Assembly: GCA_050084515.1 (NCBI GenBank)
Contig: CM114271.1
Span: 14,322,001-14,386,000, forward strand
Direction: 5' to 3'
Origin: Blasia pusilla
Taxonomy: Eukaryota
Length of the DNA stretch: 64,000 nt
Below, piece after piece: positions 19,898 through 63,834 of this stretch. Both the position numbers and the translations under genes were made by a program. The stretch's first letter is position 1. Every line of letters begins with the position of its first letter. A model generated the notes under the pieces. The model saw only the letters and a list, made by a program, of their open reading frames with translations. It was not told where the DNA came from and ran no database searches.

Positions 19898-22800
19898 ATT
19901 TTTAGAGATCCCTCTGCGATTCCCACCCGCGACTCAATTACTTGGGTCCCGATTAGGAACTCGCGCGAGGTCCGTTGAACAGTTGGAACCACTAGGCACA
20001 AAGGTTCCATTTTATGTTCCCAGACTAACCAGAAAGTCTGTTCCAAGTCTTGAAGGACTTGCCATGTTGGGAACCTAGGACGTAAGGAAGGTTGAGCTTG
20101 ATGAGATGCCAAGTTGGGAACTCGGTGGGTTGGAAGGCCGTGTGACCCAAAGCCAGACTAATGTGAGTGCATTTGGGGTGCAAGTCGGCGATGAGAGCGT
20201 GTCCTACTGAACGTACGCTTCCGCAATACTAGAGATTGACGTTCAAGGAGAGTAGGCGCACGACAAGTGGTATCAGAGCTAATCCTTGGTGAGCGAGAAC
20301 TTGGGGTCATGGGATCGAGTGGAGGCTTGGGGAAACTCAAGGTAGCGGCTAGGCCTAGACGCTCGAGGAGGGAGGCAAGAAATAAGGAGGAGATCTGAGT
20401 GTGGCCGCTTGAAGATGGCGATCGAGGGAGACGAACCCAAGAAGCACCGAATCAAGCAACGAGAACTGAGTATCAAACCAATGCCGGACCGTGAAGCTAT
20501 GGAGGAGACGGAGACTCCCGAGGAGCCGAGTGACGGACTTGAGGATGTTCCAGAGGCGAATCCTTCTGCAGGGGCCATCGGCTCCAAACTCAAGGGAACC
20601 GACTAAGTCAAGTCAGACGTTGGACTTGTTGAAGTTGTTGGTAGAGCAGATGTCCCAGCAAAGCAAGCGGATAGTAGAGCTAGAGGCAGATCGAACCTCG
20701 GGTGCAGGCAAAAAGCTTTGCAAGACGAACTTGCCCACGCCATTCACTGGGGTGGGGCGTTCTCGGAAAGTGAAGGATTTCCTTACGGAGTTGGAACTGT
20801 ACTTCAAGGCGCAGAGGGCAGTTGAGCAGGACAAGGTGACGGTAGCTGTTACTTTCCTAAAGGATCATGCGCTACAATGGTGGACAACTCAACGAAAGGA
20901 ACATCTAGACGGCGAGTCACCTTTGAGTTGGGAGGAGTTTAAGGTGTTGATTGGTGACCGATTCACTCCGGAGTACCAAGGGTTGCGCGACACGGTGGAA
21001 TGCATATGGTTGCGACAGAGTGGTTCCTTAAGCGCTTATGTGAGGGAGTTTAGTGCAAAATTGTCTTTTCTTCCTAAAATGGATGAGCACGCAAATAAGG
21101 CTATCTTCATTAGCGGACTTAAACCAAGTGCTGAAAAGGCCCTTTACCGAATGTCGGCATTTCCAGATACCTGTGTGGACCTTCTGAAGCTAGCGGAGCG
21201 GATCGGGGACGATGAAGTCCAAACCCATAAGCCCTTTGAGCGAAAAGGTTTTTTGAAGAATGCGAAAAATAAGGAGACATCCAAGAGAGTCTGGAGTGGG
21301 GGCTCGCGCGACCAAGGAGAGTCGCTTGCCCCAGCAGCAAAACGAGTGGAACTTCATGCGAAGCCAAGAGGAGGACAACATTCTAAGTCAGGAAATGGCA
21401 AGGTGATATGCTATAACTGTGGCGAGCCTGGGCACATGGCAAAAGGGTATTCGAAACCGAAGGTTAGTAATAGGAGTATGATTGCGTTTGCTACTAAGCA
21501 CTTGTCGGCGGGTGGTCTCAAGACGTCCCTTCACGTCACGAAGAGGACGCCCAATTTGGTGTACCTAAGATCCAAGATTTCTGATCGCGATGTGTTGTTG
21601 CTCGTGGATACAGGTGCTTCGCACTCCTTCCTAAGCCCAAGAATCGTGAAGGAGCAAGGTTTGTCCACCTCTAAGGCGGACGAACCCATTCGAGTGGGAT
21701 TTGCTAGAGGCAAGTCTCATCGGACTTCTGAGTTGGTCTTGGGTTTAACCATAGGATGCGGAGTATTCGAGTTGAAGGAGAATTTCACTGTGTGCGAGAT
21801 GGATGGCATTGACTGAGTCTTGGGGAATACATTCCTGGACGCGTATGAGGTGGAGTTAAGATGTAGACCATTGAGGTTGAGCATCTTGCTGAAAGGCAAA
21901 CGGTTGCAGGTAGGGTTGGTTCGTCAAGTTCTGATGAAGAAGGAGTTGGTGAATACTTTTACAGGGAGGAGCATGACCGAGTTAGAGGATGAATTTCTCT
22001 GCTTGATGAGACAAGTGGAGGAGGCTACAAGTGAAATACGCAAAGATCAGGACACTGCTTCAAGGGGAATCCCAACACTACTTCAGAAAGTGGTCAAGGA
22101 GTTTAAGGATGTCTTGACAAATGAGCTTCCAACTGAGTTGCCGCCACATAGAGCAGTTGATCATAAGATAGAGATCATACATGGTTCCCAACCGCCTTCC
22201 AAGGCACCATATAGGTTGAATCAAGAAGAACTTCTTGATTTAAAAGGGCAGTTAAGTGAGCTCTTGGAACAGGGTTACATTTGGACTAGCAAGTCACCTT
22301 ATGGAGCACCCGTTCTCTTTGAAAAGAAGAAGGATGGGAAGATGAGGCTGTGTGTTGATTATCGTGGGCTGAATAAAGTGATGGTTCAGAACAACTATCC
22401 TCTTCTGAGGATAGATGATCTCTTTGATAGGTTGGCAGGCGCAAGATACTTCAGTAAGATTGACTTGAAGTCAAGATATTACCAGATCCGGATTGCCGAG
22501 GCAGATCTGGAGAAGACTGCGTCTAGGACAAGATATGGGTCCTTTGAGTTTTTAGTGATGCCTTTTGGTCTATGCAATGCGCCTCTGACGTTCACCACAT
22601 TGATGAACTCCATTTTTCATAAGGAGATGGATGAGTATGTGATCATCTACATTGATGATATACTTATCTATTCAAAGTCACTGGAGGAGCACGCTCAACA
22701 TGTGAGAGTGGTTTTGTCAAAACTAAGGGCGAATCAGTTATATGCGAATGTAGAGAAGAGTGAATTCGGGTTGAGCAAGATCAAATTCTTGGGTCACGTG

Positions 22801-25800
22801 GTTAGTGCAGATGGTGTCACTCCAGACATGGAGAAGGTGAAAGCGATTTTCGAGTGGGAACCGCCGTCCACCGTAAAGGGGATGAGGAAGTTCATAGGTG
22901 CGGTGCAGTTCTATCGCAATTATGTGAAGAACTTTTATGGAATTGTGAGACCTCTCACGGATTGGACAGCAAATTTTTCCAACACGACATGGACCCAAGA
23001 AGTTAATGAGGCGTTCAACCGAGTGAAGCAGATTCTATCGCAAGAACTAGTACTGAAGCTGCCGGAGTGACACAAACAATTCGAGGTGCATACTGATGCT
23101 AGTGATTTTGCAATTGCAGGAATGTTGGTGCAAGAAGGGAGACCTGTGTCATAGGAGGGCAAGAAGCTTAGCGACACTCAAAGAAGATGGCCTACTCATG
23201 AGAAAGAGTTGTTTGCGGTGGTCCATTGTTTGAGGAAGTGGCATCACTATTTGGGACTTCACAGAACTCGAGTGTTCACCGATAACATATCGCTCAAGTA
23301 TTTTAAGACCTAGGAACGAGTGACACCGAAACAACTGCGATGGCATGATACCTTGGCGTTGATGGGTGTTGAGTTGATTCACAAGCCAGGTAAAGATAAT
23401 GTGATTCCAAATGCCTTGAGTCGTAAGGAGGAATACATATCATCGACGACACAGTTCTTGAGAGCAATGTTCCCTAAAGAAACTGATTTGGAGAGAAGGA
23501 TTCGTGAAGGATACATGAGAGACGACCAAGCATTGGAGTTTTTGAGGAGGTTGAAGCAGGGTGAGAAGGTGGCCAACATAAGTTTGAGGCACGGTTTACT
23601 AAGGTTCAAGCAGAGCAGGATCTATGTGGGGCAAGGCAGGATGCGGACCAAGGTGTTAGTGGAATATCAGACGGACCCTTGGCAGGACATAATTGAGAGA
23701 AATCTACGATGGTTGTTCTGTCTAAGCGGTTCTTCTAGCCCAACATGAAAGAGGATGTTGCTCAATATGTAAAGACCTGTGTGACCTGCCAAGTGAACAG
23801 AGTTTCTTATGATAAGAGACAAAGCCTACTGCATCCCTTGCCGATTCCAGAAGGACCCTTGCAAAGTGTGAGTATGGATTTCATCACGAGTCTTCCGGAA
23901 TCTGAGGGATACAACACTATACTTGTGATTGTGGATCGGTTTAGCAAGTGGCGAGATTCGTGCCGACGGTGGATTCCGCAACGACTTATACGACTGCGCA
24001 ATTGTTCCTGGATGGATGGTGGCGGACTTACGGTTTTTCGAGGAGTATTGTTTCAGATCGAGATCCAAAGTTTACCAGTGCTTTTTGGAAGCATTTATTC
24101 AAAAGGTTTAAGACCAAGTTGAGTTTCACCACTGCCTTCCATCCACAAACGGATGGGCAGACTGAAAAGGTAAATTTGATCGTGAATCAGTACTTAAGGG
24201 ATTATGTAAGTGCGGATCAGCGAGATTGGGTCAAGTGGCTAAGCATGACAAAGTACTGCTACAACTCGACCAAGCATTCTGCAACTGGAGAATCTTCGTT
24301 TCTCCTGGCAAATGGACGAGAGCTAGAAGGGCCTCTTGACCTAGCCCTTTCGAAGGGTACTACATTGGCACGAATACGACAAGCGACGGCAAAAGGATTT
24401 TTAGTAGAGATGCGAGAACGGAAAGAGCGAGCAAGACGAAGTCTTGAAAAGGCTCAAATGAGGTACGTTAAGCATGTGAACAAGAGTTGGCGCCAAGTAC
24501 GATTCCAAGTTGGAGAGCAAGTATGGTTGAGTGTGAAGAATCTCACTCTACCAAAAGAGTTGTCTACGAAGTTTTCTGCCAAGTATGCTGGACCGTATGT
24601 GATTATGGCAAACTCGTTTTAGGACATGTAGACATTGGAGCTGCCGGATGAGTTCAAGATTCACCCAACCTTTCATGTGTCATTGTTGAAGAAATATCTT
24701 CAAGATAATGGGCGCTTCGAGCGGAGACAAGTGTTGAGACCGCAACCTGTAATCGTGGACGAAGAACCGGAGTTTGAGGTGGAGACCATCTTGAGTTTGG
24801 CCAACAAGTATGAGTACTTGGAAACAGGTTCAAGTGTTGGATGACACTCGGACTCGCCCTAGCGTCGGCGGGGCAGATGAATCTGTCTTGGGGCTTGGGG
24901 TGATCTTACTTGTGATAGCATGAGTAAACTTAGTAACGCGCATAAGTTGAATACAAGAGCGACCCAATAATAGTACGATTTGTGGACCGGGTAAACATAT
25001 GTGATGTTTACGAGAGTGAGCAAGAAGAGTCTTAGGTTGCACACTTAGTTAGCTTATTTGATAGGTTAGTTCTCCAGAACGTGTCCAAGCTTATTGAAGA
25101 GGAGATGCTAATAATTCTAAGTGGTGCAAAGCAACAACTTCAGACTTAAGAGGAATTGCGGATTAGGCACCAGAACGCAATTCGATGTCAAGGGGTAGGC
25201 TGCCTAGGAGACTTGACATAACGAAGGTTTGCGTTGATGAGGGCATCAACCTCTAAAAAGGGGTGAGTGTCGCGACCCTCATGACCAAACGAGTGCCAAA
25301 GCGGAACATCGGAACACTAGCGGGCTCATGCTAAGATGGTTTGCTCGTTGGAGTGGTCTCGGAGAAGAGACAGGAGACGAGATGCAAGCGAGGCTTCGTG
25401 GTTCATATGTTGTTGTCGCGACTGAGAAACCAGGACCAAATGCGGATCAAGACTTGAGAAGAGTCAAGTCTAGGAAGTGGGTTGCCAAAGGAAGGAATCC
25501 GGATTTGGGACGCCACTAGCGTTTGAGAGTTTTCGATTGTATTTATGGCCATAACTTTTAGCGCCAATATGCGTTTGGGACGAGTAAGGATGCGTTGGAA
25601 AGCCTATGGAAAGCCTACAGACGCACTAAATTTCTCTGAAAATGCACAAGTAGCAGCTGAGAAACAACCCAAAAACGACTGTAAGTAGAGTCGGTTTGAG
25701 GGCCACAATGAAGGGCTCGACCATCCTTTTCCAAAGGTAGGGGGTGTTTGGAGATCCTCAGAAGTAATAGTAAGGGGGAAGGTCTCCAAGGGTGTTTGGG

Positions 25801-38439: not shown

Positions 38440-39195
38440 ATAGAAAGGACATGTGTCAAAAAGAAAATGGCAACAAGCTAACACAAACACCACCTGAATA
38501 AGCTACACAATTGATTGCTTGACATAAATGTCACAAAAATACTAGTGGTTGGTCAAACATGAATGGAAGACAAGATAAGTGACCCCCCGACCACTTCCGC
38601 TCTACGTATCAACGGTAAAGCTTGTGCATGTTGTAAGATCATCGAGATGTATTGCCAAAAAAAAAGTTGTCAGTACAAAGAGAGAAGGAGTACTAGAAGG
38701 GGCAAGGTGATGATTCTCAAGGGAGCGGTGAGCACATGTTTTAAGGAAAGTATGAAGAGATACATGCAAGTGCCTAAACACTTCCAATGCAAAGGGAATA
38801 AATCCATCGGTTATATGTCTCACAACATAACTAAACTCCTTGATTCGGCTGTTGCTTTGGCCGCAAAACCTTTAGTATATGTTGTTCAATACACCAAGTC
38901 CAAACGTGTTGGATCATCAATCATCACATCACCCAATACCCAAATTCCACCTCGAGACAAAACAAGATCAAGTCTGCTACGAGAGGTTGCTTGTGTAGTT
39001 GAAGGTAGGACATGGAAGTGCACTTGCCGAATTGTGTACCCTGGTGTACGAGCCAACGATGTTATCACCTCTCTAATTACATCATGTATGGTTGTTTGTC
39101 CTCCACCGTGTTCAAATCGAAGATATGAATACCCTTTGCATCAATGGGTTCTTTGCATACACAATTCGACACACCTATCGGAGAAGGATGGATAA
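38440..39195 (-). mobile_element. 5'-truncated fragment of an RLE-type (CRE-like) non-LTR retrotransposon: CCHC + endonuclease
   Basis: Minus translation across stop/frameshifts: CVCKEPIDAKGIHILRFEHGGGQTTIHDVIREVITSLAR...RLDLVLSRGGIWVLGDVMIDDPTR...GFAAKATAE/KEFSY...FIPFALEVF...FLKTCAH...QYISMILQHAQA. Collinear with the C-terminus of the 40113-43237 element. Confidence 0.85.
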
Positions 39196-39699
39196 GTCCG
39201 AGGAGCAATTGCTAATCTGTCGAAAATATATTTTAATGAAGACAAAATGAAAGAAGAACAAAAATTTGCAATAAACCATGCCCCCCTTTTAACCACGCAT
39301 GGACACAAATGATAAGAGATGCCTTGTGGAGAAAACTTTTATTAATCTGATTATTAATGCAAATTCTGGAAGCCCATAATTTGCACCACATCGAATAGAA
39401 AGTATGAAGACATATATTCGAGAACTGGGTTTTCTCGAGTTTTGAGTTTTGAGTTTGGGACGGGGGCGGCGGGAGGCATGGACGGGGACGGCGGGAGGAA
39501 GAACGGTGGGCGCCAGGGAAGAGAAGGGACATGGTACATATCGAAACGGAGAGCGTGACGAGGGCTTTGTTTTGATCCGGACCTTAATGCATGGCGTGAA
39601 GTATTTTTTTTTTATTCATCTTTTTAGAATTCGGTTCATATAAGGGTTCCAAATGTGAGTATTAGGGCTTTGCTTATTGTCATTTGGAGAAATTTCCCA

Positions 39700-42600
39700 A
39701 GGTAACGTCCTCTATTCACTCACCCTTCCCCTCCTTTCCCAAGTCCTTCCTTGTTTGTCGTATTTTTCGTATGTGCTTCTCATTTTGGTTCGATTCACGT
39801 TTGTATTTGTTACCCCTCCCGTAGATATACTTTTCTTCTCATCTATTTTATCTCGATTGGCCCATGATCTTTTCACACTCTTAGCAACTCTAGGTATTCA
39901 TGAGTTCATTTTTGGGAGTGGGTTGGGACTAGAAGTCCTAGGTGATGTCAGTAGGTGAGAGTTTATGTTAGAGGGAGCATTACCGTGGACGGAAAGAGAG
40001 TTGTTTGCTAGGACCGCTCGTTCGAATGGGGATGATAGGACAGTTATTGGCAGGGGATTGTCGCACGATTCTATTGGAGGGGGCCATGTCCTCTTCTTGG
40101 TGAGTTGCATCCATGCCTCGATCCGCATCGGCTCTCCGTGTGGGGACCCGTGGGTTGTCTAGTCGGGATACTAAATGCCCATGTTGTCACGAATTCTTCA
40201 CTTGTTCAAGAATTCGAAACCACTTAGCGGCTAAACATCCTGACTTTGATAGATTTGGATAGGTGGTCCCTCCGGTCGACCATGGATGCTCTCCGATGCT
40301 TCCCGCATCATCGCCCCCTCCTGAGGCATGGGAGTGATTGAGGTCCCACCAGGGCAGCAGTATAGGTCTCTTCGAGGCCCGTTTTCCCTGCCCGAGGTTG
40401 TTCCATAGGATCCCCCATGCTATTCGGGATGACCTCTGCCACGCATTCCTCCTTCCCCTAGCTAGGATCGCTCTTGATCCTATGGATGAGCTCTCTTGGT
40501 ACCTACTACTTCTCCTTCCACGATGGTGTCTTCGTTACACTCGGGGAGGGAAGGCCGGTCATAGAGAGGTTGTGGCACGTCTGAGATGCTTTCGAGGAGG
40601 TGATTGGGACTCTCTGCAGAGTGAGTTTGTGGCATTCGCCAGAGGTAGTAGTTCACTTGGTTTCCCGACGGAAGATCTTGGAGCAGCCAGGTTGCGACGA
40701 TGTAGGACATTGGGGCGAGCATGTGAATACTCGCGAGCTGCATGTGCTCTTCACCCGATGGACATGGCTCCTTCTTCAACTGTTACCATCGATGCCCTCC
40801 GGAGGTTACATCCTCGTCCAACGATTGACATTCCAGCTTTTGCACGTGACTTCCATCCTGACACGACTATATGCCTTGACCCGTCCCTCTTTGCACGGGC
40901 ACTCGGACGTTCTCCGAGGATTGCGGCCGGAGGTTTGTCTGGTATGGTGTACGAACACCTTCGTGATTGCTTTCCTTCCGAGGACACCGCTAGCGGCTTC
41001 TCCGAGTTGCTTCAGGTTGCCTCTCACCTAGCTCAAGGGAGAGTGCCAACAGCAGTGGCCCAAGTATTAGGGGCGGGGCGACTTTTGGCGTTGTCGAAGG
41101 AGGGTGGTGGTATCCGTCCGATTGCCATAGGTGAGGTGCTCTTGCGGTTGGTGAGTCGTACTCTCGCTTTGCAATTCCGTGAGGCTTTCCAGTCACATCT
41201 GAGTTGGCATCAGTTTGGAGTTGCCACGCCAGCCGAATGTGATACGGTTGCCTTAGGTTTGAGGGCTTGTCTAGATGTACATCCAGAGTGGGTGGTTCTC
41301 CAAGTGGACGTGGAGAACGCCTTCAACTCAGTATCTCGGGCTACTATATTCACAGAGTTGAGGGACGCGGGTGGCCCCATGGCGAGCCTCATTCCCTTTG
41401 TGCAAGCTTTCTATGGGGCCCCTTCGGCCCTCTATTTCCACCATGGTCGATTCGAGGAGGAGGTCACTGTCTTGGAGTCCTCACAGGGACTCGGGGTGAC
41501 CCTCTGGGTGGCGCGTTGTTTGCTGTGGCTCATTACCGAGCGGTTCTTTCTACGGTGGAGGCTTTCCCGGGTTGCATGTTCCCTTCGTTGGCAGATGATA
41601 CTCATATTGTTGGTCCTAGAGATCTGGTTGTCCCTGCATTCGAGCACTTTTCAGCACAGTTGGCACGTGTCGGCCTGGCGGTGAAGGTGGGAAAGTGCAA
41701 GGCTTGGTCTCCATCAGGCCTACGTGATGATCTACATTTACCCGACGGCTTCTTGTGACTTTTCGGAGGGCTTCGAGTCTTGGGAGTCCCGCTCGGGAGC
41801 CAGGACTTTGTATCGAGTTTTGTGGCAGCGGCTCTTACCAAGGATCTTCTCCACGTTGATGATCTTACGAGGATTGGTGACCCTCAAGTCGCCTTTGGCA
41901 TTCTCTCTTCTTGTTTTGCTCGTAGACCTGGTTACCTCACTAGAACGGTCTGGACATCTAGTCACCTTTCTTCCCTATATAGATCCTTTGATAGGAAGCT
42001 CATGCAGGTGTTTGGGGATCTTCTAGGACCCGGCTCCTTAGAGTGCCCCATGGGGTAGTTAGCTTGTAGACAGGCCTCTTGGCCGATTTATTTTGGTGGA
42101 GTAGGTCTTCTCTCGACCGAGTTAGTGGGGCCCTCCGCTTTTTTAGGGAGTTGGGCCACAGTGGCACTCCTCCTTTGCTCCCGATTTTGGTTAGAGATAG
42201 ACCGCTCCTTCTACACTACGTCTCCCAGGTTGAGGATGGCTCTTTCCCACTTCAGTCTTCACTCACAGCTTGTAGAGATTCCGTTCGAGTTGAGGCCAGA
42301 GCCGTTCTCCCCACTTTCTCCTCCTTAGTTACCTCCGGTTAGTCTGGGCTCCAATCTTCCTTGATGGAAGCCCACTTTGAGGCAGTTTTTAGAGGCACTA
42401 TGTCTGACGGGAATATCCCCATGGAGGTTAGGGCCCGTATTCGCTCTTGCTCCGGAGAGGGGATTAGGCTCATGGGTAGGGGCGCGCCCCCTTCTCCTGG
42501 CTTTCCGTATTGCACCACTTACCTATACCACAGTGATGCGGTTCCGCTTGGGCCTCCCCCAACCATCGGTGGTTGGTTCCACACATTGAGAGTATCGCCG

Positions 42601-43345
42601 GAGCCTGGATCCACTTGGTGTGCATTTGGCACGCTGTCCAGTTGGGGGTGAGAGGATAGCCACTCACGATGCAGTGCGGGATATCATGTTCAGTATTGCT
42701 CGGGAGAGTGGCTTCCATGTGTAGAGAGAGAGGCACTACTCCATGCGGGATTCCCTTATTCGTGCTGATCTTTACATGACACGAGAGGCTGAGGTGGTGG
42801 TGGTGGCGGACGTGGTAGTCACAAATCCTACGCGGGAGGCAGTGCGAGCCCAAGTGGTGGCCCAAGGGAGAATGCTACAAGGAGCGGCGGCGGCGGCGGT
42901 GGTGGTGAAGAAGACACATATCTACAGTCGACTTCACGAGGGACATATCTTCATCCCCCTGGCCATAGAGATGTATGGGGCTATGGGGGAGAGGTTCGAC
43001 TCGTTCCTTACGGACTGCGCCCATCATCTCCACTCGAGAAATGGGTTGTCCTTAGCTACTGCGATTCTCTATTGTAAGCAGCGGGTCTCCATAGCGTTGC
43101 AGCGTGCCCAGGCTAATGGGCTTTTGCGGCGGGCTCAGGCTGTGGGAGACGCCAGCGCTAGAGGCCCACTTAGTAGTAGTCATAGCTCTCTTGTTGTTGC
43201 TGATATTGTCTCTACTGTTGGTGAGTTTCGTCGTTAGGGGGGGAATACCCCCCTCTTCCTTTTCTGGTCTTGTTGTGGCCTTCAGGTTATGACTGTTTGA
43301 GTCCCCTCTTTTGTACTTCCGATGAGTTTTCCATCACACGTTTAT
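39700..43345 (+). mobile_element. Near-full-length RLE-type (CRE-like) non-LTR retrotransposon; boundaries approximate
   Basis: One disrupted ORF with ZnF, RT, CCHC and RLE in that order; no APE endonuclease, no LTRs. TSD and tail not identified. Confidence 0.85.
40113..43237 (+). pseudogene. C2H2 zinc finger - reverse transcriptase - CCHC - restriction-like endonuclease polyprotein
   Basis: ATG 40113 is in frame with CPCCHEFFTCSRIRNHLAAKH (40176-40238) and with the 40338 ORF. RT motifs GGIRPIAIGEVLLRLVSR, QFGV, QVDVENAFNSVSR, G(T)R-GDPLGGALF, SLADD (41588-41599), LGVPLGS. C-terminus VHLARCPVGGERIATHDAVRD, RADL, ADVVVTNP, KKTHIY, FIPLAIEMYG, QRVSIALQRAQA. Confidence 0.9.
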
Positions 43346-43663
43346 ATCGAAGTGCACCTTTATTTACCTAAGCCATTGCATGACATGCATGTAATCTTAG
43401 AATAATATTCTTAAGTCATAAATTAAATTCTTTTGCTCCTTATCATGGCCTAGCGCCACCGTGGGCTACCTACTACTAAGCATTCGTATACTACTAAGCA
43501 TTCGTAGGAGTTACCCCATTAGTCGAAGTCCTGGCTTCCTTCCAACAATTCCTTTTTTCTTGCAATGGAACCAACAACAAGTGCTCCCTTTTAAGCCACG
43601 TGGATTTTGGCATCTTTTTTATTCACATTCCCTCTCCCCGTGAGATACCACCACAGTAGCACG

Positions 43664-44317
43664 GTTAGTCCGAAGCTAGTCGGACTGAATGAAGCCTGCC
43701 ACGTAGGATTTCCATCCGCTGGAGTATGATACGGTCAGTGTAGACTGAGAAGTTACTGGGGAAGTTCCGACACCCGCGTAGACATTGCCGATGCATTACA
43801 GCGTATGTGTCATCATCACGCATCCGGAGTAAGCTTTCAGACGCTGCCCGCAGCCCGTTCCTCCGGCCGACGGTTGCTTTCCGATCTCTTGCCGGCGTCG
43901 ACGCCGAAGGAGCAGTTCCCAAATCCATCCCAATGCGACGGCACTTTCCAGCAACGAGGAGCTCGGACGGAACACGGAGACCGTGGCGTGGAAAGCCGCA
44001 AGAGATAGGAGGGTTAGGGACGGACGGAGCCAGGGAGGGAAGGGAGGATCGGACGGACGGAGGAAGGGAAGGGAAGGGGACGGACGGAGGAAGGGCATGG
44101 AGGATCGGACGAACGGAAGAAGGGAAGGGACGGACGGAGGAGGGAGGGATCCTCGAGAAGGCGAGGAGCGATGACATATGAGGAGCAGCAGCACGAGCTG
44201 GAGTCGACGGTGTTGTGTTTCTCCCGGGTGGTTTGGGATGAGTTGCTTCCAACCATAGCCGCAGCAGCATACAGCGACAGATGTACAAACAAACAAACGG
44301 TATAGCTTCGGACGAAC
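43664..44317. repeat. 654-bp segment bounded by 15-bp inverted repeats, with GGA/GGACGGA-rich interior
   Basis: GTTAGTCCGAAGCTA (43664-43678) vs TAGCTTCGGACGAAC (44303-44317), 14/15 match; purine-rich repeats 44005-44170; no TSD. Confidence 0.45.
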
Positions 44318-44543: not shown

Positions 44544-45536
44544 ATGGATAAGGAACCGGAGGAGATGCAGTACCTCGGGGTGTGGGGGATCATGAAGGAG
44601 GGGTGGAAATTGATGAGATCGTATGGAAGGTTGCTAGCGTCGTTGACAGCAACATTGGTGCTGCCGCTTTGCTTCGTGGTCCTGGCGCACCATCTTCTGT
44701 CTGACCCGTTGGCGAGGAAGCTCCAGCGGCAGGAGGATGTGGAGATGACGGAGGAAGGGACTCCCGCCGGTGAAAGACTGAGGCAGCAGATGGACAAGGA
44801 GACTATAGGATTGATTGTCATGGGGATAGTCTATGTCCTCTTTGTGCTGTCGTTTTCTATGCTCGCATTCGCGGCCATTGTGTACAGCGTGGCCTGCATC
44901 TACACAGGCAAAGGCGTGTCTTACTCCAAGGTTTTGAGTGTGGTGCCGAAAGTGTGGAGGCGTCTCATGGTGACTTTGTTGTGGTCCTACTTGGGGATGT
45001 TTGCGTACGAGGTGGTAGGGTTGGTGGGTATCGTTCTGATAGCCATCCTTTCGCCGGCCCTCGGTGTGCTCACTCCTCTTGTGTTCTTCTTATTCTTGGG
45101 TGCATTCTTTGTTGTGCTGCTGTACTTGATCATGATCTGGGACTTGGCCAACGTCATATCGGTGCTAGAGGAATCGTATGGCTTGGGCGCTGTCAAGAAG
45201 AGCGTACATCTGCTCAAGGGCAAGCGATTAGTTGCGTGCGCCCTCGTGCTTATCTACGGGCTACCTCACATTATTATCTCAGAGCTCTTCCAAGGGCAGG
45301 TGGTGGACTCGCAGGGGAGCGGGTGGGCTCGAGTCCTCTATGCAGCTCTGCTCATCTCGTTGTTTTCTTCGGTGTGGTTGATGGGACTCATCGTGCAAAG
45401 CGTCCTTTACTTCGTTTGTAAGGCTCATCACCACGAGAGCATCGACAGATATGCTTTAGGCGATCACCTAGATGGATATTTGGGAGAGTACATGCCTCTC
45501 AAGGACCCGATTCCGTTGGAAACACTTGAGCCGTGA
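44544..45536 (+). CDS. Uncharacterised multi-pass membrane protein, At5g44860/At4g19950/At1g31130-like ('PAB1-B-binding protein' annotation family)
   Basis: Intronless 330-aa ORF with ~6 hydrophobic segments. Family motifs MD..PEEMQYL, LVLPLCFVVLAH, VYSVACIYTGK, VVPKVWRRL, VISVLE..YG..A..KS..LLKGK, YFVCKAHHHESID, DHLDGYLGEYMPLK. Confidence 0.9.
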   Translation: MDKEPEEMQYLGVWGIMKEGWKLMRSYGRLLASLTATLVLPLCFVVLAHHLLSDPLARKLQRQEDVEMTEEGTPAGERLRQQMDKETIGLIVMGIVYVLFVLSFSMLAFAAIVYSVACIYTGKGVSYSKVLSVVPKVWRRLMVTLLWSYLGMFAYEVVGLVGIVLIAILSPALGVLTPLVFFLFLGAFFVVLLYLIMIWDLANVISVLEESYGLGAVKKSVHLLKGKRLVACALVLIYGLPHIIISELFQGQVVDSQGSGWARVLYAALLISLFSSVWLMGLIVQSVLYFVCKAHHHESIDRYALGDHLDGYLGEYMPLKDPIPLETLEP

Positions 45537-62353: not shown

Positions 62354-63834
62354 CTACATACAATTGGTCATGAGAAAATACTGAGTAGGCAAGTAAATGC
62401 TCACCTTATACAAAGTTTGACTTTGGGACTTATTGATAGTCATAGCAAAAGTCAGTCGAAGAGGGAATAGAAACCTACGTAAATCAAATGGCAAACGTGA
62501 ATCTGATGCAATCAATGGGATACGTGGAACAAAAATTTGATCTCCAATATTCTTCAATGTGAAAATTTCAGCATCTATGCAATGTTGCATAAATCCATGA
62601 ATCACCAATCTTGTCACGTTTGCTTGTCCATGTACTCCTTTCATGTTTCGTAACGGCATGATTGGTGCCCCAATCTTACAACACAATCGGTGCGGAGGAA
62701 GTCCTGAAGGCAAGCATGTGTTGAAAAATTCAGTTGGATATATATGAGTCACCCCCTCGTTTGGAATAGAGTCGACGTTGAGGTAAACTTGCTCCTGTAC
62801 ACAAATATAATAAGTTTGTAAGAAAATTTAATATTAATATCTAAACTTGTAATTGAATAACTCTTTTATAAAAGTTAAAGGGATTAACTCTCTTGGAAAC
62901 CGCGACATTACGCTTGCATTTATGTTATCTACATCTTTATTTCTTGTCGTGCGCATACACATCGCCACATAACATACATCGATGTCATCGAACACACACA
63001 CAAACACACACGATCCTATGCTAACTCATGGCATCCATACACAGAGGCAAGAAGTACCAAAATATCTCCAATAAAGTAAGATCAAATCTCTCTCACAACA
63101 CTATAGTTCTCATATGTGTGCACTCTCACATGTGTCTCTTAATGTCAAACCAAACCCACTCTCCTAATGAGAGGTTTGGGTTACACACAAAAGGCAAGCA
63201 AGACCATAGCTCCGCCGCCTCATGCCAAGAGGTTCAACAAAGAGAGAATGAGCTCTCAAGCTCTCTCTCTTGGAGGTATACCCCCTTCCCTCTCCCAAGC
63301 CCTCTCAACGGTAACCTATGCTCACAGGTCACCTCCTTGGCTCTTGATCTGCTGTAGTGGATCAAAGGCCACTTCCCAAAGTGGAAAGTCAACTATCCCC
63401 AAAATAAAACTTACCCGAAATAGTAAGTTTCTCTATATGGCTCCAAATGAGCCGAAACGAAGGGGAAACATGCTCTCTCAGGTTTCCCGAGGCCTTAACT
63501 GGTCATCCTCGACCTCTTGCGTCTGTCCTCCAGTACTCGTGCAGACGCTTTGCTAGATCCCACCGATCTATCCTAACAGTTGTGACATTCTCAAAGTGAA
63601 AATTTCCTTATCTCTCAAGAAATCAATGTCATTGAATTCGGATGGAAAATTTCCATATATCAAATCAATAAGATCACATATCTTATTACTTCTAGTAACA
63701 ATTTCAGATGGTAATTGTATAAAGTCTTCTCCCAAATTTGGATGCAAAGGTACACGACCCAATCGCTTCTAATAACCAATCAGCAAAAGCTTGTTGTTCA
63801 CTATGCAAGTAACCTTCCAACCTTTGAACTCGCT
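62354..63834 (-). pseudogene. Helitron Rep/Helicase fragment (Pif1-family helicase C-terminal half), interrupted by a solo LTR
   Basis: RVQRLE...EQQAFADWLLE, LIDLIYG, IFTLR|NKDVDNIN, YPTEFFNTCLPSGLPPHRL, GAPIMPLRN, VPRIPL, LPFDLRR.LFPLRLTFAMTINKSQSQTL. AT-rich intron ~62796-62891. Confidence 0.88.
62945..63587 (-). mobile_element. Solo LTR (643 bp) with 4-bp TSD TTCT
   Basis: TTCT|TGTCGTGCGC...TGTGACA|TTCT. Removing it plus one TSD copy restores the helicase frame (F-T-L-R-N-K-D-V). Confidence 0.92.

Follow-up and report, generated by a model that had tools for sequence, protein, structure and literature searches.

Within the 64,000-nucleotide stretch of Blasia pusilla contig CM114271.1 analysed here (positions 14,322,001 to 14,386,000 of the forward strand; called the window, and numbered from its first letter), a broken open reading frame (ORF) at 40113..43237 on the plus strand resembles the coding region of a retrotransposon that lacks long terminal repeats (non-LTR). 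The locus raises the question of what kind of element this was, where it stands among the known groups, and whether the leucine in its catalytic box, SLADD, came from a working reverse transcriptase (RT) or arose by decay. We read it, with a probability of about 0.88, as a decayed, near full-length long interspersed nuclear element (LINE) of the restriction-like endonuclease (RLE) type, from a lineage without a name; the closest of its members that do carry names are two protein fragments of the liverwort Riccia fluitans.

Reading frame and domain order of the main copy

The broken single ORF runs from an ATG at 40113, which a TGA at 40101 precedes by three codons, to a terminal TAG at 43235-43237 (~1041 codons). 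A sequence-only reading of the window had given these coordinates and a length of ~1040 codons, and when the frames were re-read the coordinates proved exact and the length correct. Frame 3 covers 40104 to ~41482 and frame 2 covers 41483-43237, with a single frameshift (frame 3 to frame 2) within ~41483-41492, inside RT motif B. Eight in-frame stops were found, at 40260 (TAG), 40335 (TGA), 41756 (TGA), 42056 (TAG), 42326 (TAG), 42362 (TGA), 42587 (TGA) and 42722 (TAG). The copy is pseudogenised and without function, as the earlier description of it as dead had stated; it is incapable of retrotransposition because of the eight premature stops, the frameshift in RT motif B and the destroyed CCHC zinc knuckle.

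The order of the domains was taken from an alignment of the window with six relatives and from mapping of the motif coordinates. Zinc finger, RT, CCHC remnant and RLE follow one another in one ORF, and the single-ORF architecture proposed earlier is present in the alignment with the relatives. The features are listed below; database relatives carry P numbers.

40176-40238, + strand: N-terminal C2H2-type zinc finger, CPCC...H...H (C-x2-C-x11-H-x4-H), aligned with the fingers of P0025, P0001, P0002 and P0027
40326-40337, + strand: AWE-stop, the conserved W-x-W with its second W codon now TGA (relatives have AWEW, PWHW, PWDW and SWDW)
41094..41797, + strand: RT core, from RVT_1 at residues 253-347 of the 40338 fragment and from the alignment
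41106-41135, + strand: GGIRPIAIGE (RPIAIG), from motif mapping
41208-41222, + strand: HQFGV, from motif mapping
41298-41330, + strand: motif A, LQVDVENAFNS (D-x-x-NAFN), from motif mapping
from 41486, + strand: motif B, GTR-GDPLGG, with the Q lost and holding the frameshift, from the alignment
41585-41599, + strand: motif C, the catalytic box SLADD (TCG TTG GCA GAT GAT), from the alignment and motif mapping
from 41690, + strand: motif D, GKCKAW, from the alignment
41771-41797, + strand: motif E, LRVLGVPLG, from motif mapping
42578-42637, + strand: CCHC zinc-knuckle remnant, aligned with the C-x-C...H...C of P0026, P0027, P0025, P0001, P0002 and P0028
42662..42979, + strand: restriction-like (PD-(D/E)XK) endonuclease domain with THDAVRD, RAD, ADV, KK..Y and FIPLAIE, from the alignment
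42758-42772, + strand: nuclease motif IRADL, from motif mapping
42803-42829, + strand: nuclease motif VADVVVTNP, from motif mapping
42908-42925, + strand: nuclease motif KKTHIY, from motif mapping
42950-42979, + strand: nuclease motif FIPLAIEMYG, from motif mapping
from 43079, + strand: terminal helices, QRVSIALQRAQ, conserved in the alignment

The zinc finger starts 21 codons past the ATG. A helical N-terminal region lies between the W-x-W motif and the RT motifs, and a thumb and linker region separates the RT core from the CCHC knuckle. Motif B lacks the Q of the usual GTRQGDP box. The CCHC remnant has kept its His and last Cys, whereas its first two Cys positions now hold Ser and a stop. 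In the nuclease region the D, D, K and E positions are retained in the alignment with the relatives.

Homology to R2 and relatives of the element

We aligned complete relatives to the window by tblastn. Residues 6-338 of P0026 (931 aa) matched 40497-41489 (42% identity) and residues 337-924 matched 41483-43222 (35%), with E = 3e-116, and residues 64-484 and 486-1068 of P0027 (1096 aa) matched 40293-43159 with E = 4e-117. Over the whole length, the two proteins are 33-42% identical to the window element. Judged from these alignments, the homology of the main copy is far beyond chance. The Pfam family RVT_1 was found in all nine relatives scanned, at 41.8-71.2 bits.

We compared a profile built from 15 relatives (A1) with the full set of PDB sequences, and its best matches were R2 proteins: 9nl3 (E = 3.4e-44), 9dou (4.1e-44), 9nl2 (4.5e-33) and 8gh6 of Bombyx mori (3.5e-22). 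R2 was matched in two stretches, one over the RT (109.2 bits) and one over the CCHC and nuclease region (43.5 bits, i-Evalue 1.5e-10), and the alignment places R-x-D, D-V-T-V and K-x-x-K-Y of the family on K-P-D, D-V-T-V and K-V-R-K-Y of R2. Human L1 ORF2p matched the profile with E = 7.3e-12, in the RT only. The AlphaFold2 model of the relative P0027 (not of the window copy), made from a 72-sequence alignment, has a mean predicted local distance difference test (pLDDT) of 89.8 and a predicted template modelling score (pTM) of 0.89. When this model was compared with the PDB by Foldseek, ranks 1-7 were all R2 (B. mori, T. guttata and P. megacephalum), with E values of 1.5e-21 to 3.7e-18, template modelling (TM) scores of 0.46-0.62 and identities of 14-17%, and L1 ORF2p came at rank 8 and lower, from E = 8.5e-15.

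Membership in L1 or RTE was considered and rejected. No Pfam match to an apurinic/apyrimidinic endonuclease (APE; Exo_endo_phos) or to RNase H was found in any of eight window fragments (E ≤ 1) or nine relatives (E ≤ 0.05), which bears out the earlier statement that the element is not of the APE type, and L1 ORF2p lies well behind R2 in both the profile search and the fold ranking. L1 and RTE elements are, like the window element, non-LTR elements of plants and use target-primed reverse transcription, as the window element presumably did, but they carry an N-terminal APE endonuclease that the window element lacks.

The architecture is instead that of R2, in which a single ORF likewise encodes zinc finger, RT, CCHC and PD-(D/E)XK nuclease (R2Bm of Bombyx mori, R2Tg of Taeniopygia guttata and the Platysternon R2; 8gh6, 9dou, 9nl3 and 9nl2), and the combination of a CCHC motif with a PD-(D/E)XK nuclease is described in the available text of Mukha et al. 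2013 (PMC3636483). Target-primed reverse transcription is presumably common to R2 and the window element. By inference from R2, an active copy would have encoded a single protein able to bind the RNA of the element. Target DNA would be held by the zinc finger at the N-terminus together with the helical region behind it, the C-terminal nuclease would nick one strand, and the RT would prime cDNA from the nick, that is, carry out target-primed reverse transcription. Incomplete copying would yield 5'-truncated insertions, for example the fragment at 38580-39259 described below.

Relatives of the element are numerous and largely nameless. A phmmer search of a 448-aa fragment against 1.84 billion representatives gave 7286 matches at E ≤ 1e-3, 2308 at ≤ 1e-10 and 88 at ≤ 1e-30, all with at most 56% identity; the earlier suggestion that similar proteins may already be in databases is borne out, with no LINE clade given for any of the named ones. 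In a profile search that reports names, 95 matches reached E ≤ 1e-10 and 16 entries were named; these come from Riccia fluitans (a liverwort), Closterium species, Cymbomonas tetramitiformis, Symbiodinium natans, a tardigrade, Diplonema papillatum (a euglenozoan), Porphyridium purpureum and Pyropia yezoensis. Fourteen of the 16 are called "hypothetical", "unnamed" or "uncharacterized", and two Porphyridium entries are called "Retrotransposable element" only. The precomputed Pfam annotation of nearly all matches is PF00078 alone, and for P0027 the ESM Atlas gave no neighbours other than unnamed RVT_1 clusters.

To place the element, two trees were computed. The FastTree set has 147 rows, the window plus 146 of 259 stored proteins in which a regular expression located RPI, QGDP and xxDD motifs; most of the 113 proteins excluded were fragments. 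The quick IQ-TREE run has 39 chosen rows: the 11 of an inner clade, 15 of the 21 other rows of a 32-row clade, seven of the nine rows of a second Closterium clade, and six outliers. In both trees, the window is sister to two Riccia fluitans proteins (support 89 in FastTree, 91 in IQ-TREE), and this group is nested in the 11-row clade (94 and 90), which in turn lies inside the 32-row clade, with Closterium NIES-68 among its members (98 in FastTree; 83 for the 26 rows retained in IQ-TREE). The Riccia proteins, R1flu_017480 (P0176, 316 aa) and R1flu_015020 (P0029, 237 aa), are 53-65% identical to the RT of the window, and, unlike the window, they are fragments annotated as genes, without a finger or a nuclease part. 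In these trees, the wider clade takes in full-length ORFs of the streptophyte alga Closterium. P0002, P0003, P0004 and P0169 (~980-1340 aa) can be aligned to the RT region of the window, and the complete P0002, which lies in the same 32-row clade, aligns with it through finger, RT, CCHC and RLE; the Closterium proteins differ in being only 29-37% identical to the window, in having YADD throughout and in their algal hosts. The suggestion that the host is a land plant is consistent with the liverwort origin of the nearest named relatives and with the Streptophyta cluster matched by a neighbouring ORF, and this evidence is indirect.

As a separate observation, four giant database proteins, P0022, P0024, P0040 and P0047 (3716-5900 aa), each hold at least two copies of the same RT segment, and are probably gene models that fuse adjacent copies of this LINE family.

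Several results weigh against the reading of the locus as a near full-length RLE-type LINE with Riccia as its nearest named kin. On the window fragments, RVT_1 scores 30.2 bits, just above the cutoff of 29.6, and the zinc finger matches of Pfam are below cutoff (E = 0.0066 and 0.07). Searched singly in the PDB, the window's own fragments give nothing significant (RT piece, best E = 0.16; nuclease piece, no match), so the link to R2 rests on the relatives, through the profile and the model, as transitive homology, which is very strong. The supports of 89 and 91 for the window-Riccia group fall short of the starred level, as do the other IQ-TREE values (90 and 83), and both Riccia proteins in the trees are short fragments, of 237 and 316 aa. 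No target-site duplication, element ends, poly(A) or 3' repeat was found. Only one near-full copy is present in the 64 kb window.

Clade assignment and the catalytic box

The element belongs to the RLE-bearing group, which takes in R2, CRE, R4, NeSL/Utopia and Hero, and R2, at 14-17% identity, is the closest solved structure. The RLE clades are given as CRE, R2, R4, NeSL and Hero, plus Dualen, in the available text of Kojima and Jurka 2015 (PMC4640811), and that of PMC3636483 likewise lists CRE with R2, R4, NeSL and Hero. By insertion site the element differs from the R2 clade: R2 is an insertion in 28S rDNA, and the window element is not, with no rRNA match within the window. In motif C, the aligned R2 chain has F where the window has L and relatives have I or V. 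R2 elements carry a Myb domain behind the N-terminal finger or fingers; no Myb-family Pfam match was found in nine relatives at E ≤ 0.05, and the P0027 model has a helical region at residues 73-190.

Where within the RLE group the element stands can be answered only in grades. The reading to which we give the most weight, at somewhat less than even odds, is that the element is part of a separate, so far unnamed clade of RLE LINEs, one that occurs in Streptophyta and other protists and is distinct from the five RLE clades with names. The thousands of relatives (7286 at the loosest threshold, 88 at the strictest), the lack of a named LINE clade among the 16 named matches, the unnamed ESM Atlas neighbours and the low identity to R2 structures all argue for it. 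So does the literature: our search found no account of RLE LINEs in liverworts, other bryophytes or streptophyte algae, although some queries were too broad to inform, and the LINEs of plants are assigned to the L1 and RTE clades in the available text of a 2024 study on poplar (PMC11288735). On the other side, Repbase or Dfam may already hold such families under the label CRE, Hero, NeSL or another, and unnamed entries are normal for transposon ORFs in protein databases.

One such label, CRE, had been favoured by the sequence-only reading on motifs such as IRPIAIG, QFGV and LGVPLG, and membership in that clade (CRE1/CRE2, SLACS, CZAR, Cnl1 and MoTeR) seems to us improbable. CRE elements have an N-terminal C2H2 finger; their founding members insert in spliced-leader genes, and the fungal members at telomeres. 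The single ORF with N-terminal C2H2 finger, RT, CCHC and RLE is compatible with CRE, the clade is counted among those bearing an RLE (PMC4640811, in the text available), and the wider relatives include the euglenozoan Diplonema papillatum, from the phylum of the trypanosomatid hosts of CRE. However, the same architecture is common to other RLE clades. In contrast to the targets of CRE, which are a property of the known members and do not strictly define the clade, the window element has no spliced-leader gene, telomeric repeat or Rfam family at its site or close by, and no CRE, SLACS or CZAR name occurs among the named database relatives. Far less probable still is a Dualen/RandI element, which carries both APE and RLE, with its APE lost or hidden. 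This RLE-bearing group has reportedly been found in the green lineage. But the ~290 residues between the finger and the RT motifs of the window align to non-APE sequence of the relatives, no Exo_endo_phos, RNase H or peptidase match was found in any of the nine relatives, and nearly all matches carry PF00078 alone; the domain set of Dualen/RandI is described in the available text of a Tara Oceans RT study (PMC5029228).

The second question concerns the catalytic box. The L of SLADD takes a position that is Y or F in most RTs, and its codon, TTG, is two substitutions from TAT/TAC. Among the 146 relatives, this position is Y in 104, F in 27, L in 4, I in 3, V in 3, Q in 2, and W, A and C in 1 each. 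I, V or L occurs in five of the ten relatives of the 11-row clade versus five of the 136 others, and the residues within the clade are as follows.

I at motif C: P0023, P0025
V at motif C: P0001, P0055
L at motif C: P0176
F at motif C: P0026
Y at motif C: P0027, P0016, P0205, P0029

P0025 (IADD, 1361 aa) and P0001 (VADD, 1160 aa) are complete ORFs with CCHC and nuclease intact, and at least six changes between aromatic and aliphatic residues are required on the 39-row tree. Riccia P0176, at ~53% overall identity, shares with the window an identical 13-residue string, FPSLADDTHIVGP. The L was probably inherited from a working ancestor and predates the death of the copy, because P0176 shares all 13 residues, the 11-row clade includes complete ORFs with I or V, and a change between TTG and a Tyr codon takes two substitutions. 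The comparison indicates that the aromatic position is relaxed to I, V or L in the 11-row clade, and not that L is fixed. It is unlikely that the L is instead a decay mutation of an active ancestor with YADD or FADD, although the window copy has many other lesions, 131 of the 146 relatives have Y or F, and P0029, one of the two nearest relatives, has YADD and reads PSYADDTHIVGP; against decay stand the shared string of P0176, the two substitutions, the complete I- and V-bearing ORFs and the repeated changes on the tree. Inheritance of the L also has to contend with P0176 itself, which looks decayed and is no proof of an active L-bearing enzyme, with the lack of any intact L-bearing ORF among the relatives seen, and with the fact that, outside the 11-row clade, some of the residues scored as non-aromatic were read by the regular expression and unchecked by eye. 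The SLADD box noted earlier is genuine and common to Riccia P0176, but L is no fixed residue: YADD stands in P0029, and the closest ORFs that are intact carry I, V, F or Y there. Telomerase has an aliphatic residue at the corresponding position of its RT box.

A wider proposal combines both questions, and we hold it tentatively: the window element, Riccia, Closterium and unnamed kin might form a distinct RLE-LINE clade, inherited vertically from zygnematophyte-grade algae to liverworts, outside CRE, R2, R4, NeSL and Hero, whose active enzymes tolerate L, I or V at a position of the Y/F-x-DD box that is aromatic in almost all other RTs. If this is true, the aliphatic residues may be tied to a different nucleotide selection or processivity, and the elements of the clade may have a target preference not yet seen.

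Element ends, neighbourhood and meaning

Two further features of the family lie next to the ORF of the main copy.

43238..43400, + strand: probable 3' untranslated region, from RNA fold and T-over-A skew
38580-39259, - strand: second, diverged, 5'-truncated RLE-LINE fragment, with the CCHC and nuclease part only, from homology

A G7-AATA-C6 hairpin stands directly past the stop codon, at 43237-43254, and the RNA fold of 43230-43400 has a z score of -2.1, with 4 of 200 shuffles as good, which is suggestive at most. A T-over-A strand skew extends from ~39650 to ~43400 and may mark the extent of the element. Exact direct repeats of at least 9 nt were sought between 39300-40150 and 43200-43700, and three matches were found. 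Of these, an 11-bp repeat at 39608/43615 was tried as a target-site duplication and rejected, as it was equalled or beaten in 46 of 500 local-composition shuffles. No microsatellite, poly(A) or telomere-type repeat adjoins the element, the tandem repeats nearby being short arrays only, and the 64 kb contain no Rfam match at the gathering score and no tRNA. An exact 18-bp tandem duplication, TACTACTAAGCATTCGTA x2, is found at 43471-43506, ~235 bp downstream of the stop, and abuts no defined end.

The fragment at 38580-39259 stands head-to-head with the main copy, the 5' sides ~800 bp apart, and has 26% amino acid identity to the C-terminus of the main copy (E = 1.3e-10); 26 of the 259 stored relatives match it at E ≤ 1e-2. 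It retains RLGLP, C-x-C...H, GG..IHD, R-x-DL, GDV, FIP-A-E and the QxAQA helix, and has several stops and frame changes, and we describe it as older. It is a 5'-truncated insertion, such as target-primed reverse transcription usually leaves as a by-product. Many RLE-type LINEs, though not all, insert into a specific repeated target; the main copy and the fragment have in their 3' flanks no common sequence longer than 9 nt that would indicate a shared target. A DNA-level search of the window for further copies returned the self-match only.

Other features of the window were recorded alongside. An intact 330-aa ORF at 44544-45533 (+ strand), ~1.3 kb downstream of the element, matches unnamed transmembrane-protein clusters from Streptophyta (ESM Atlas score 0.98) and no Pfam family, and is probably a host gene. 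Upstream of it lies a purine-rich tandem array (44016-44149) with periods of 29 and 56 bp, GGA/GGGA-type units and extreme GC and AT skew. The coding region of a Ty3/gypsy-type LTR retrotransposon at 20470-24622 (+ strand) comprises gag/capsid, a CCHC knuckle, an aspartic protease and RT (RVT_1, 118.6 bits), with a weak Tf2-type SH3 match and a strongly positive GC skew. At 62354-62827 (- strand), an ORF fragment contains a Pif1 helicase 2B domain (E = 1.8e-9); it may have been left by a Helitron or be part of a host Pif1.

The window copy is an ordinary genomic fossil, of a lineage for which we found no published description. The largest inventory of RLE elements (Fell et al.) is mostly arthropod, according to the available text of a 2026 review (PMC13580325), and the available text of the Riccia genome papers (PMC11735767, PMC12131699) does not discuss LINEs. 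Together with the Riccia relatives, the fossil implies that a lineage of R2-like RLE LINEs reached at least the liverworts, and full-length open relatives exist in streptophyte algae, which fills a gap in the distribution of the oldest type of LINE. A screen for RNA-templated insertion enzymes that are native to the green lineage could draw on the complete ORFs P0026, P0027, P0025 and P0001 as well as the Closterium proteins, and the Y, F, I, V and L variants at the catalytic box offer a natural series for enzymology.

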